A DNA stretch of 64,000 nucleotides from Octopus vulgaris. Taxonomy: Eukaryota. The position numbers and the translations under genes were made by a program. Each line of letters starts with the position of its first letter. Within the stretch, counting starts at the first letter, position 1. The stretch spans positions 59,272,001 to 59,336,000 of the forward strand of contig OX597818.1 of NCBI GenBank assembly GCA_951406725.2, written 5' to 3'. The notes under the pieces are model-generated. The model did no database searches, was not told where the DNA came from, and saw nothing but the letters and a program-made list of their open reading frames with translations. Below are positions 2,806-58,745 of the stretch, piece by piece.

Positions 2806-3056
2806 GGGTAAGATGGTTAATTTATATATCGATCTTATCAAATGGCCAGCATGGGGATAAAAACCTTCAAAGGTAATAATTATTATTAAAATTATAATTT
2901 AGGGTATCTAAGAGATAACGCCACGCTGGAAATAGTAGCCAAAACCTGACTCAAAAACAACATTATGAACATTTGATGTGGTTTTAGAGTCATGTTTTGG
3001 CTGCTATTTCCAGCGTGGCGGTAACTCTTAGACACCGTAACTTATAATTCTAATTA
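2806..3056 (-). mobile_element. Hairpin+tail insert in (TA)n (putative PLE terminal remnant, family B)
   Basis: Inverted arms ~2888-2958 / ~2983-3053 (CGCCACGCTGGAAATAGTAGCCAAAAC vs GTTTTGGCTGCTATTTCCAGCGTGGCG); ~80-bp one-sided tail 2806-2887; TA tracts on both sides. Confidence 0.65.
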
Positions 3057-3271
3057 TATATATATTTATATATACATACACACATACATAAGTTTATGTA
3101 TACATACACACATACACATATATATACATATATATTTATGTATACACATATATATGTTTTTATGTGTGTCCTTATGTGTGTATGTGTGTGCGTGTGAGTG
3201 TTTTTAGCGTTTGTATTTATCCATATATATATATATATATATATATATATATATATATATATATATATATA

Positions 3272-3581
3272 TGGAGGCGCAATGGCCTAGTGGTTAGCGC
3301 AGCGGACTCGCGGTCGTAGGATCGCAGTTTCGATTCCCAGACCGGGCGTTGTGAGTGTTTATTGAGCGAAAACTCCTAAAGCTCCACGAGGCTCCGGCAG
3401 GGGGTGGTGGCGATCCCTGCTGTACTCTTTCGCCACACCTTTCTCTCACTCTTTCCTCTGTTGGCCTGCTCGCTTAGCCAGCGGGGTGGCGTCATTTGAA
3501 GGCTAAAACAATGCGAAGCGCATTGTGACCAGTGATGTGTAACAACATCTGATGGCCTGGTAGGTCACGGTGATCATGGTT
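3272..3581 (+). mobile_element. tRNA-derived SINE (family R, tail type 1)
   Basis: TGGAGGCGCAATGGCCTAGTGGTTAG (A box) ... GTTTCGATTCCC (B box); tail shared with the copies at 23471 and 30026. Confidence 0.9.
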
Positions 3582-3595
3582 ATATATATATATAT

Positions 3596-53788: not shown

Positions 53789-56255
53789 GTTTAAATTATC
53801 ATCTGTACTAAGATCCATCCAAGAATAATACAAGAAACAAAGGAGTATAGTTTGATTACTAGTTTAAAATGACTAAAGTAAAACGGTAGAATGGTGTAGT
53901 TCACTAGTTGAAGCCATTAAAATAATGAAATAACATTTATAGAGGTTAGTAGATAGATTGATAGATAGATAGATAGATAGATAGATAGATAGATAGATAG
54001 ATAGATAGATAGATAGATAGATAGATAGATAGATAGATAGACAGGCAGACAGATAGATAGATACGTAAATAGACAGACATATAGATACATATATATATAG
54101 ATAGATATATAGGTAGATAGATAGGATATATATATATATATATATATAAATAGATAGATTGATACAGATAGATAGATAGATAGATAGATAGATAGATAGA
54201 TAGATAGATAGATAGATAGATAGATAGATAGATAGATAGATAGATAGATAGACAGACCGACAGATAGATAGTTGTGGGTATGTTTTAATCACTATAGAAC
54301 GCGGAAACGAAAACTAGACAAAACATAAAAGACAAAACTACAGTCCATCATTTGCAACTACCATTTCTAAAATTTCACCAGAAATATAAAATTTGTATCG
54401 GATTTCTATTATTCCTATGCCACAAGATATACATGTCACCCCTCCCCATCGTACACCACATTTTAATAAACGTGTTGGTATAAGAATAGTTACAATGAGT
54501 TACTGTTTAATACGTTAAACCCGATAATAAATCTGTAATGAGTGATAAAATTATTTCCTGCCTCCTGTAAAGAGATAAATTTAAGAAAGCAGACGATAAA
54601 ACAGGAAATAAATCATGAAAAGCATTAGGAACTTTCCTGATCTGAGGAATAGTTTGCTTGTTTAGATTAATATTGCGTGAGGTATATGGAAAACTTTTGA
54701 AATATACATACATGCATACATACATACATAATATATACATACATACATACATACATACATATATATATATATATATATATATATATATATATATATATAT
54801 ATATATAATTTATTTCATTTATTTCATCTAGTTTCAGATCACGAGCTGTGGCCACGCTGGGGCACCGCCATTGTTATATATATATATATATATATATATA
54901 TATAATATAAGAAGGAAAATGCACACAGTTTACGTAATTTTAATATATTTTTAAATGTATTTTATAAATAAAAGCGTATTGTGTTTCTCGACCGGTTTCG
55001 CTTTTGCTACTCATGACATTGAAATTATTGTAATATATTAAAAATATGTTATATCTATGTCAACTGTGTGCGTGTGATATATATATATATATATATATAT
55101 ATATATATATATATATATATATATTATTTCTAAATATTATTTCTAAATTTCTCAGACAGCTATTCTGTAACAATTTTTAAAAAAAATTATAATCTATTTG
55201 CCAACATAATGTGGCTGCCCTGGGCGAGACGATTGCTGCTGTTGTTTAGTGACAGGAAACATTGTTTCCACACTCGTGTATCTAGTTATGTCTGTGAGTG
55301 AATCAACGTATACGTTTATGCATTGGTGTGTGTGTGTGTATGAATCTATTTTGCTACTTCCGCTAGTCAATTGACTGTGGCCATATTGCACAACTTCTTG
55401 AAGTGTTTTACTTAAACGAATTCTCATTACTTATTTAAAAATTCATACTAATTCTAGCGATCTCTTTTGTCGAAATACTAGTTTATGGGAACATAAGCAA
55501 AACTAACGGGTTGTCAAGTGGAGGTGGAATTACAAATAGAGTTATGAAAACTCAAAAACACAGGTGTATGATAATTGGGCAGAAACATACATTATACACA
55601 AGAGAGCCAATTTCTCAGAATGAAATTATTTATTTTAAGATTGATTAAGAAATATTTCAGATATGACAGTTCATCAGAAGAAAAAAGAGAAAGAAAAATT
55701 AGGGTCGTGGAAAGAAGGAAAGAGGGAAAAATTTGTGTCCGGGTGGGAATGCATTTCTGTGGTGGGATTTAAGAAGCGAGGAGGAAGCAGGAATGGTAGA
55801 TAGATAGATAGATATATATATAGATAGATAGATAGATAGATAGTGGGAGGCAGAGAGAGAGAGAGAGCTTGATGGATGGAAGGATGGATAGATAGATGGA
55901 TAGCTAGCTAGATAGATAGATATTGAGAGACAGAAAGATTTATGGATGGATGGATGGATAGATAGATAAATAGATGGATAGATATATAAATAGACAGATA
56001 GATAGATAGATAGATAGATAGATAGATAGATAGATAGATAGATAGATAGATAGATAGATAGATAAATAGAGACAGACAGAGAGATGATGGGTGGATGGAT
56101 AGATAGATAGATTGATAGATAGACAGACAGGTAGATAGGTAGGTAGATAGATAGATAGATAGATAGAGACAGACAGAGATATTTATGGATGGTTGGATGG
56201 ATGGATGGATGGATGGATAGACAGATAGATATATAAATAGATGGATAGATAGATA

Positions 56256-57238
56256 TGTTTCTTTATTAGCCACACAGGGCTGCACACAGATAGAACAAAT
56301 TACAAGGTAGAGCTTTTCTTTTGAAGGTTTAAAAAAAAAAAAAAGGAAGGGGAGTTTCGATCAAAAAGGGATCGTAAAAGGAGAGAAAGAGGACAAAAAA
56401 AGGGGGTTAAAAAAAAGGGGGAGAGAAAAAAAAATTGATCAATAGGGATCGTTATCACAGAAATGTCAATATGAAGTGTAAAGGGGAGGACAGGTGAGGC
56501 TTACGCGTGGAAAGAAAAGCCTATGGAAAAGTCCACGGTAACCTCGGTCAATGGAGTCACATGTTATATTTCTTTTTTTTTTTTTTTGCGAATAAGCAAC
56601 TCTCTGTTTTCAATTTCTGGGTTCATAGGATCATGCTCAAGGTGGCTTCGTCATTCATACGTGCCATTCTTGCTACATTCACCCATCTTTTTTTAAAACA
56701 TTCGCTAGACAAAACTTGCCTCTCTACTCTCACTTTCCTTTTCAAGTGGTACTTGAAGAAGTTGATGAGAGATTGACCAGAGAGGAAAGTGTTTGTCTCC
56801 AATCCTTTCAGACGCGTCCACCAGATACATTCTTTCGCCATAGCCACAAGGATGATGAAAATAGCTCTACCTTCCCGTTTGAAGGAGGGAGGCGTGACAA
56901 TATTGACGATAGACTCAGCTGATAAACCAACTCGTCCCACACGTGACAGCAGTTGTTCGACACAAGCCCACAGGTCGGAAATTGTTGGACACTGCACGAG
57001 TGCGTGCAGAACGGTTTCGTCGCTCTGACCGCATCTCGGGCAGGTCGGCCCCGTGTTTCTTGAGCCGTGTCTGTAGAGCTTATCCCGAACGGGTAGCGCT
57101 TCTCGGTAGCACTGCCAGGCCAGGGATCTCTGGAAGTTGTCCATGGGCCCTGGCCCGAAAGTCGTCCTGAACAGGCGGGTCAGGTACTCCTCGTCGACGT
57201 CCAGGTTCGCCCCGAGCTCGTCGTCGTACCTCCCCTCG
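56256..57238 (-). mobile_element. 5'-truncated Tx1/L1-clade LINE inserted in (GATA)n
   Basis: Intact ORF2 C-terminus 56623-57238 with zf-RVT motif ALPVRDKL..CPRC..ETVLHALVQC..IWWTR; 3' UTR ending AATAAAGAAAC; (GATA)n on both sides. Confidence 0.9.
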
Positions 57239-58080
57239 ATAGATAGATAGATAGATAGATAGATAGATAGATAGATAGATAGATAGATAGATAGATAGAT
57301 AGATAGAAGACAGGCGTCAACACAGATTGTGTCTACAAAATTCAACCACAAACATTGGTTGGCCTCCCACAACAGTAGCAGACACAACACTATGAGACGG
57401 AAACTTAAACAAATTCGTAACAAGTTCTTTTGGCTACACACCAATTTTGTACAGCCGTATATTCTGAAACGAAGCAGCATATGTCTTACATTCTTTTCTT
57501 TTTGTAAAATGCTATAACTCACCTGAATGTAACCAGCCAACGTTACATGTTAAACGTTAAAATGAAAGAAATGAAAGTTAATTCATAAATAATTACATAA
57601 TTACGTATCACTCAACTGAGAGGAATTAGACAGGTAGAAAAATAAGAACGTGTTACCTATGAAATTAAGCAGACTGAAGTTTTGCTGAATTTATTTCGTG
57701 GCATATATCTCAGGAATGAAATTTATGGCATTAATTTACCATTAGAAATACCATAAAATATATGAAGAACAACGATATACAGGTCATGGGAAAAATTTTT
57801 CTACGAATTTATGTTACCTAACAATGCCCATGCACATGATACCATACCCGTGTGGGCAGTCATCTAAAAGTTTTTGTGCATCTTGATGCTGACATACGTT
57901 CCTTGTTTTTCCTGATGAGAAGGCGGCATAATGCACCCCTTATTCCTTCGAAATTAGGAATATGCAGCCTTCGAAACATATGTCGAAAATAAAGGAATTT
58001 TGTTAATTCGTCCTTCAACTCCATTCTTTCATTTATATATATATATATATATATATATATATATATATATATATATATAT

Positions 58081-58745
58081 CTAATGTAGGATAAAATTTT
58101 TTCGAAAAAAATTATTTTCCAAAACAAAATTTTATCAATGGCCAGCATATTAAAAAATACCTTTAAATGTTAAAATTATAAGCAATTCATAAATAAGAGC
58201 AAACGAAAAAATTTCTAATGCCAAATATGTCGAAAAATTGGACATATTGTCCATTAACCATATAATTTTTTCACAATACGCCCGCTACTCGAAAAAAGGT
58301 GGACAGAAATTTCTAAAAATTTCCATTGTTACCATATCGGACCGATTTCAGGGTTAGCTTATAACAGCCCCCCTTCGTCAGTGATACATGTGGCAAAAGA
58401 AATAAATGAGATACTTACTCATACCCATGGAAGAAGCAAACACTAAGTCATGAGCACAATTAAGTACCCCAAATACATCCAAAATAGAAATACTCTAGCC
58501 CATTCGAGACACGTGCGATTTGAACTGATGCTCTCACAGAGTGAAAGAGTCCGAAAGTGAACACTTAAATTTATACCTAATGTAGGATAAATTTTTTCGA
58601 AAAAAATTCTTTTCCATACATTTTGGATGTATTTGGGGTACTTAATTGTGCTCATGACTTAGTGTTTGCTTCTTCCATGGGTATGAGTAAGTATCTCATT
58701 TATTTCTTTTGCCACATGTATCACTGACGAAGGGGGGCTGTTATA
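58081..58745 (-). mobile_element. PLE terminal remnant with hammerhead, direct repeat and inverted arm, in (TA)n
   Basis: Arms 58360-58484 / 58621-58745 inverted; CTAATGTAGGATAAA..TTTTCCA directly repeated at 58081 and 58577. Confidence 0.8.
58330..58386 (-). ncRNA. Type I hammerhead ribozyme
   Basis: Minus strand: TATCA-CTGACGA-AGGG(...)CCCT-GAAA-TCGGtCCGA-TA-TGGTA. Confidence 0.8.

Follow-up and report, generated by a model that had tools for sequence, protein, structure and literature searches.

Ten sites in a 64,000-nucleotide stretch of the Octopus vulgaris genome (the window; OX597818.1, positions 59272001-59336000, 34% GC with many (TA)n tracts) carry inserts with an inverted repeat, mostly with a tail on one side only, and they led us to a rule about how such inserts end. 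In the 2.8-Gb genome that we searched, insertions of this kind nearly always join one short end (S) to one long, tailed end (L), both fixed for each family: among 101 two-armed insertions 89 read S+L, one S+S and none L+L, and 11 had one other end. The pattern at the ten sites is real and belongs to a known class, the Penelope-like elements (PLEs), whose architecture and TA bias have been published (PMC8557442). New here is the strict pairing of a long with a short end, found on both miniatures and retrozyme-like arrays. The value of the sites lies in this end-pairing rule, and not in the architecture or the TA bias noted at first.

End pairing, arm lengths and splice states

For each of the families, named A to G, 30 loci were taken, out of first-look candidates that numbered from at least 72 to at least 2523. 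From the resulting 210 loci we dropped 20 that were self-hits of the window or repeats of one array, as well as twelve rows of family F whose apparent L+L ends were an artefact, namely the tail hairpin of the upstream tandem unit. A possible L+L insert of family D at C10 proved to be S+L. The two ends are sharply placed in family A, where query base 147 marks the end of the inverted arms and base 222 that of the tailed arms. Tails of natural copies measure 83 nt in A1, 69 in A2, 85 in B, 143 in C, 97 in D, 59 in E, 101 in F and 69 in G, each to within about 10 nt because the ends blur into TA.

The same pairing was seen in family C, whose matches cover the core only (8/8), in all six head-to-head pairs from unbiased genomic blocks (one with a diverged tail), and in 9 of 10 multi-unit D inserts, the largest of which spans 13.1 kb with about 14 units per arm. 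It recurs in two of two arrays derived from family G, in the one large F insert, in one Neptune-type insert with a tail of about 35 nt, and in two dimers of a further Hydra family, both full-length and arranged head-to-head. This last family (L344-L349, e.g. C6:85258001-85265000) counts dozens of copies with intact 727-aa frames, and full-length dimers of this kind are among them.

Miniature inverted-repeat transposable elements (MITEs) or foldback DNA transposons with TA target sites would likewise be short, with inverted repeats and TA flanks. Symmetric terminal inverted repeats at both ends were not found, however, and the asymmetry of the ends, already pointed out in the initial annotation, is borne out by the counts given above. 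The inner ends vary, introns have been removed, the termini of A, C and G continue into open reading frames (ORFs) with reverse transcriptase (RT) and GIY-YIG domains, and the only PLE-independent transposase-like ORF seen (L035) is not joined to the element. For A, C and G this refutes the explanation; the two-end rule and the hammerheads likewise speak against it in B, D, E and F, and overall we give it practically no weight.

We consider it probable, judging from the finished inserts, that twin priming on one RNA with strand displacement builds the insertions of A, C and G as well as those of B, D, E and F. From the fixed ends, arm lengths, splice states and empty sites we infer the following course. 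The GIY-YIG endonuclease would cut both strands within (TA)n; reverse transcription would be primed at L by one DNA end and by the other end at S, which lies 60-140 nt upstream of L. Both sites are downstream of the putative hammerhead, and in A and G they precede the start codon by a short distance. The tail would then be the S-to-L interval. The L-primed copy would displace the S-primed one, so that both cover the same RNA, and the 3' ends of the two complementary DNAs (cDNAs) would be joined head-to-head with an overlap of 0-5 nt. The pairing of S with L needs no further assumption on this scheme, because one RNA has one S and one L. If priming takes place on the mRNA's 5' terminal-repeat copy, the two cDNAs would run off at the start site and leave a miniature of 130-400 bp; priming at a downstream tandem copy would give long or full-length inserts, and multimeric or circular unit RNAs would give head-to-head arrays.

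Could the tailed arm simply have been copied back on itself? The initial annotation spoke of fold-back products, and a route near the "endonuclease-mediated resolution" of PMC8557442 would let an L-primed cDNA fold, copy itself and be cut at S. In 19 of 84 simple insertions it is the S arm that extends further inward, in 31 it is the L arm, and in 34 the two are equal (within 12 nt). The copy of a tailed cDNA cannot exceed it, and therefore both arms appear to be primed separately wherever the S arm is longer, as in the window insert at 24702 with an S arm of 2.3 kb against an L arm of 124 bp. The same follows for L109 and L119, whose L arm ends inside the tail and falls short of S, which under fold-back would permit no S arm; in L132 it ends about at S. 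Two loci considered as long S arms (L023, L025) had no S end and were left uncounted. Since either arm can be longer, fold-back is refuted as the general route, and the wording of the annotation does not stand. The equal arms, the variants shared between arms and the many junctions in palindromes (position 20688 in A, where 9 of 22 spliced arms end, and AGCT in G) are on its side, and fold-back may account for part of the equal-armed class; for the insertions as a whole we judge it improbable.

The arms also record the template. The family-A intron is absent from 14 loci, present in 14 and unclear in 2 of 30, and in all 11 insertions in which it is crossed by both arms the splice state agrees between them (p 0.0005 for independent RNAs). 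In the young families arms diverge roughly half as much within as between insertions, namely in A (1.0 vs 2.2%), G (1.9 vs 4.6%) and E (2.3 vs 4.7%), a contrast that is less clear in B, C and F. Junctions mostly show an overlap of 0-5 nt or a few added bases; at L396 one arm stops where the other starts, the classic non-overlapping geometry of twin priming. The concordant splice state, the shared variants and L396 together argue for one sense RNA per insertion.

Two further routes have to be measured against these observations. Two RNAs might be copied on an asymmetric dimer, one subunit starting at L and the other at S, with the cDNAs joined end to end. Arms could then overlap without displacement and either could be the longer, and the protein of an anole PLE is predicted to dimerise (PMC11167929). 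This arrangement, however, needs an extra rule against L+L and S+S, it requires both RNAs always to be of the same splice class, and it fits poorly with an insertion in which one arm ends where the other begins; we hold it to be unlikely. An antisense transcript that snaps back and primes its own copy (PMC3846280) would explain the head-to-head polarity and the retention of introns, as seen in the unspliced A copies, but the spliced arms need a sense template and both arm-length classes occur, which leaves self-priming of this kind very improbable.

Under twin priming on one RNA the inner ends should reflect the template's 5' end. None of 22 spliced A arms passes position 20685 of the window, the A of an initiator-like TCACTTC, three seemingly longer matches having been extended by chance. 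In G, 23 of 59 arms have their end exactly 29 nt below a TATAAA, with a query that favours arms of at least 55 nt. Because spliced A arms stop at the predicted start, the miniatures are likely run-off copies of the 5' untranslated region (UTR). With S and L both in the 5' UTR, priming at the mRNA's own 5' end would copy that UTR twice and nothing else.

Several points weigh against this interpretation. No partner arm within 1.5 kb was detected at 77 of 190 loci, and many inserts are one-armed or long. The end classes carry a tolerance of 14-16 nt to either side, again owing to ends that blur into TA; since the tail formed part of most queries, the focal end (not the partner) is biased to L, and the A and F queries favour long L arms. 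The equal-armed inserts, so often joined at natural palindromes, suit fold-back just as well, and a shared splice state and shared variants are also expected under it. PMC11167929 found the same start sites on both strands, a result that does not predict strict S+L pairing. Finally, no parent or linked ORF of B, D, E or F was found in 30 loci of each or beside 20 Hydra ORF regions.

A wider proposal is correspondingly more tentative, and we put it forward as somewhat less than an even chance: that Hydra PLE integration is obligate twin priming on a single RNA with the cDNAs serving as each other's second-strand template, that retrozyme concatemers of up to 13 kb are written in one event from circular or multimeric hammerhead RNAs, and that new retrozymes are repeatedly born from an intact PLE family.

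Hydra-clade families and tandem hammerhead units

Families A, C and G are Hydra-clade PLEs, as assigned from their motifs and linked ORFs. Upstream, family A continues into an RT/GIY-YIG frame of 729 aa that contains YRDD and VVY..YIG (L037), and beyond the tail the start of the ORF is reached (L030); its motifs include RIKWK (L030), SDKT (L031), CTCRDKSKC, CYLC and CRH. Family G comprises tandem 5.2-kb full-length copies with open frames of 718 and 722 aa (L359, L360), a start codon about 45 nt beyond the tail, and the motifs RIRWR, DKT at 116, CNCHDKTTC, CDLC and CMH. Both thus show the single ORF with RT and C-terminal GIY-YIG, the RWK motif, DKT instead of DKG, the CxCx5C linker, and CxxC and CxH around the conserved E and N that mark the clade; with C they share a predicted hammerhead in the terminal repeat and insertion into (TA)n. 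For family C, the terminus region was found downstream of an endonuclease ORF of Hydra type (about 41% to A) at 17 of 20 loci; the copies seen are all degraded, and N-terminal motifs were not seen. A Pfam search of the Hydra proteins gave no RT or GIY-YIG match, and more than 1000 full-length homologues at about 40% were found, some with PF01541.

Many G copies have a 506-aa open frame followed by a shifted 225-aa endonuclease frame (L300-L301), the 718-722-aa frame occurring in only two of the copies listed. The broken lineage seems to have spread in trans.

The other four families consist of ORF-less tandem units, of about 475 bp in B (known in tandem from one locus, L097), 474 bp in D, about 361 bp in E and 490-499 bp in F. 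A type I hammerhead fold is predicted in each unit, in line with the hammerheads expected at the outset. B, D, E, F and the G-derived arrays therefore look, by sequence, like non-LTR (long terminal repeat) retrozymes, that is, small ORF-less tandem units with one type I hammerhead. Instead of several PLE lineages, as first proposed, we thus find three families of the single Hydra clade and four ORF-less ones: a PLE origin holds for A, C and G through their ORFs, and the parent of B, D, E and F, which a PLE would move, was not found. A Neptune search for it returned one family and no loci.

Hammerheads were called by motif and pairing scans. An Rfam scan of the window gave no hammerhead family among the 150 rows listed, all of which were below threshold and almost without exception microRNA models on microsatellites. 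In family E the core variant UUGAUAA occurs in 12 of 13 matches. The predicted cut sites lie 23-172 nt upstream of S; the inserts are therefore not bounded by ribozyme ends, and the predicted cut falls within most arms. Arms that end at the cut are enriched in family C only, where 10 of 37 stop immediately 3' of the predicted position, which hints at cleaved templates, with no such enrichment in A, B, D, E, F or G.

The two G arrays connect both kinds of family. Their units of 271 and 277 bp combine the terminal repeat with the opening codons of the ORF, and trace to the intact family at 95-99% identity. The deletion junctions differ between the arrays and are uniform within the stretch counted in each (13/13 and 8/8), which points to two separate births from the autonomous family G; their S and L ends speak for an insertion of array RNA by the machinery of a PLE. 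The G array at C8 contains a higher-order repeat of 10 units, and scattered variants recur among D units. These features suggest a contribution of multimeric templates, unequal exchange at a later time or errors of assembly. Plain rolling-circle copying of one monomer was considered and not shown, and the same two features point away from it.

The window and its TA tracts

Self-alignment of the window recovered inverted repeats at all ten sites (Table 1). As the initial annotation had it, the inserts lie in or against (TA)n: TA-type repeats flank both outer ends at nine of the ten sites (24702 with a short T run ahead of the tract). A hairpin with a one-sided tail is present at eight (2806, 4590, 6990, 8281, 17201, 17590, 24702 and 49963), leaving 3596 and 58081 outside the description, and the description of the products as short fails for 17590 and 24702, whose loops measure 4.45 and 2.27 kb. 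The count of six unrelated sequence groups held up, as only A1 and A2 (85% over 156 bp) and B and F (77% over 52 bp) matched each other. So did the tie of family A to the GIY-YIG ORF at 17597-18772.

Table 1. Inserts and associated features in the window
Feature	Position	Strand	Remarks
Uninterrupted SINE copy	2299..2727	-	empty site for the insert at 4589; TA tract 2546-2558
Family B insertion	2806..3054	-	L left, S right; inverted repeat 2885-3054 (84%); ~475-bp ORF-less hammerhead unit family
Old family-C-like hairpin	3597..3866	.	inverted repeat 3601-3864 (68% overall); S in TA at left
Family A1 insertion	4589..4932	+	S left, L right; inverted repeat 4589-4844; hammerhead core 4708-4734
Family A2 insertion	6991..7236	+	S left, L right; inverted repeat 6991-7144
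Family D insertion	8286..8645	+	S left, L right; inverted repeat 8286-8546; 474-bp hammerhead unit family
Family A2 insertion	17202..17493	-	L left, S right; inverted repeat 17268-17492
5'-truncated Hydra PLE, family A1	17591..22220	+	inverted S arm 17591-17640, then 3' part ending at L
Hydra RT-GIY-YIG ORF, 3' part	17647..18772	+	N-rich insert, CxCx5C linker, CxxC and CxH motifs
Predicted exon 1, internal transcript	20685..20711	+	starts at initiator-like TCACTTC; no spliced arm above 20685
Intron GT..AG, 1284 bp	20712..21995	+	precisely absent from 14/30 family-A loci
Type I hammerhead fold, family A (predicted on copy L030)	22005..22049	+	~95-103 nt upstream of S
Family G (Hydra) insertion	24702..27157	+	S arm ~2.3 kb (24702-27030, inverted); tailed arm 27034-27157 only
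Family E insertion	49964..50194	+	S left, L right, S arm longer; inverted repeat 49964-50133; ~361-bp unit
Family F insertion	58081..58741	-	L left; one full ~490-bp unit + part of next

The targeting of TA microsatellites is supported by the sequence next to the ends and by empty sites, which indicate insertion into pre-existing tracts. The A1 insert at 4589 sits within the internal TA tract of a short interspersed nuclear element (SINE) copy at 4417-5185. The internal TA/TG tract is present in 36 uninterrupted copies of this SINE, 25 of which have a TA run of at least 8, and thus TA was there before the insertion. For the D insert at 8286 no empty site was found in the sequencing-run contigs examined. 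TA follows the focal end in 27 of 27 A, 28 of 29 G and 22 of 28 C loci.

As a background sample we took six arbitrary 100-kb blocks and excluded inverted repeats of SINEs. TA flanks were enriched there: in 30 of the 73 remaining inverted repeats an outer end lies no more than 12 bp from a TA tract, compared to 4.7% expected (binomial p 7e-21). Fourteen of the 73 are a hairpin with a tail of 50-170 bp between TA tracts; five of these are A or B, and nine fall into about eight other groups. Our eight probes marked 29 family ends, 26 of them followed by TA, and about 21 insertions in these 600 kb, which would mean roughly 1e5 insertions genome-wide if the six blocks are typical. This is a large repeat class that is easily filed as MITE or unknown.

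Individual inserts vary in their arms. The D insert has an S arm of 161 nt, longer than its L arm of 103 nt. The arms of the truncated PLE are 17591-17640/22093-22142, and the inverted repeat of the G insert is 24702-24759/27034-27091. The old hairpin at 3597 departs from the pattern, with neither a family tail nor TA beyond its right arm, and the sequence at 3866-3975 had no further copy in 664 kb of blocks or in the 210 family loci. Further fragments akin to this element lie at 4252-4419, which is cut by a SINE, and at 5759-5908. In the F insert the inverted repeat (58364-58485/58620-58741) has an arm that stops at a TATA inside the hammerhead and not at the fixed S end of the family, and the "tail" there is consequently about 280 bp. 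Together with its flanks this insert has a second copy, 97% alike, at a distance of 62 kb (L190, L191; C5:59330081, 59392562), a local segmental duplication. Imperfect tandem repeats of about 600 bp from the family-A 3' region run from 18767 to 21440, across the predicted promoter and intron.

Other repeats in the window include a hairpin at 4050-4178 with a left-side tail (3985-4178), which was absent from the earlier list and has a related copy in the C11 block. Short TA-bounded repeats that lack an inverted arm occur at 24453-24614, 36861-37007, 57890-58034 and 8951-9019, the first three with hammerhead cores, and weak AT-rich inverted repeats between TA tracts at 54905-55076, of which no other copy was found, and 38317-38419. 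SINE-like repeats at 14069-15039, 39756-40413 and 43423-43905 have internal tandem units of 184 and 117 bp, and a 308-aa frame with a zf-RVT domain (56623-57549, minus strand) is the 3' part of a long interspersed nuclear element (LINE). A young Neptune-type PLE lies between TA tracts at 9122-13239 (minus strand). Its RT/GIY-YIG frame is 630 aa long and has a piece of 143 aa upstream; a separate frame of 380 aa (12175-13317) has no Pfam match, and a hammerhead is predicted near 9260-9310. It gave 17065 first-look candidates in the genome, and other copies have open frames of 775 to 1199 aa.

Comparison with known systems

In L1 twin priming the two target ends prime on one RNA, and the resulting inversion shows short microhomology. 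There the arms do not overlap and the second site varies, whereas in the octopus insertions the second site is fixed and the arms overlap.

The Hydra-clade PLEs of PMC8557442, including the octopus member Hydra-1_Obim with its (TA)n preference, are alike in the C-terminal GIY-YIG, the RWK-like motif, DKT, CxCx5C, CxxC/CxH, hammerheads and (TA)n, and that paper reports (TA)n insertion of Hydra and Naiad PLEs, octopus families included. Compared to the norm of under 3 kb for the clade, the units found here are longer (5.2 kb in G; more than 5.5 kb in A, with an N-rich insert and a 1.3-kb intron), and N-rich ORF inserts were also noted in PMC3846280. The inverted truncated copy with a tail of 30-40 bp at one end is described in PMC8557442 as well; our tails are 60-140 nt, and strict S+L pairing is not described in the part of that paper covered here.

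The same layout of a hairpin and a one-sided tail is general to PLE insertions (PMC8557442; PMC3846280). These papers invoke endonuclease resolution and antisense self-priming, respectively, whereas the arm lengths and spliced arms analysed here point to two primings on sense RNA. The Poseidon element PAc of Anolis (PMC11167929) comes close in its biochemistry: in vitro it cuts and extends both strands at an AT-rich target, and two internal RT start sites define the tail. Its template has an uncleaved hammerhead and a stem-loop near the start, and we predict a stem-loop at the L ends of B, C, D and F. On the other hand, the PAc sites lie inside the ORF and have no homology to the target, unlike those described here, which fall within the 5' UTR (A, G), frequently resemble TA and serve one end each. 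PMC13282606 lists active PLE families in an octopus, in the part covered without an analysis of end pairing. The papers listed by our searches included none that describes twin priming, head-to-head priming or an obligatory pairing of ends for PLEs, although older subscription papers could contain such a model.

Both PMC8557442 and PMC11167929 name as an open question how the inverted repeat with its one-sided tail arises, and for the mobiliser of animal retrozymes PMC7229834 and the 2026 preprint (bioRxiv 10.64898/2026.07.22.740005) make a proposal that they leave untested. The S+L rule, the arm lengths and the run-off at start sites would combine both questions in one testable mechanism, for which the intact G frames and the two arrays derived from them offer a matched enzyme and substrate. 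In PMC7229834 and the preprint a PLE origin and mobilisation of retrozymes is proposed, with arrays formed by local amplification, and animal non-LTR retrozymes are described as ORF-less tandem units of 150-500 bp with a type I hammerhead, as found here. Unlike the retrozymes known from these sources, whole arrays in the octopus stand head-to-head with PLE-type S and L ends in TA, an arrangement read from the genome sequence.

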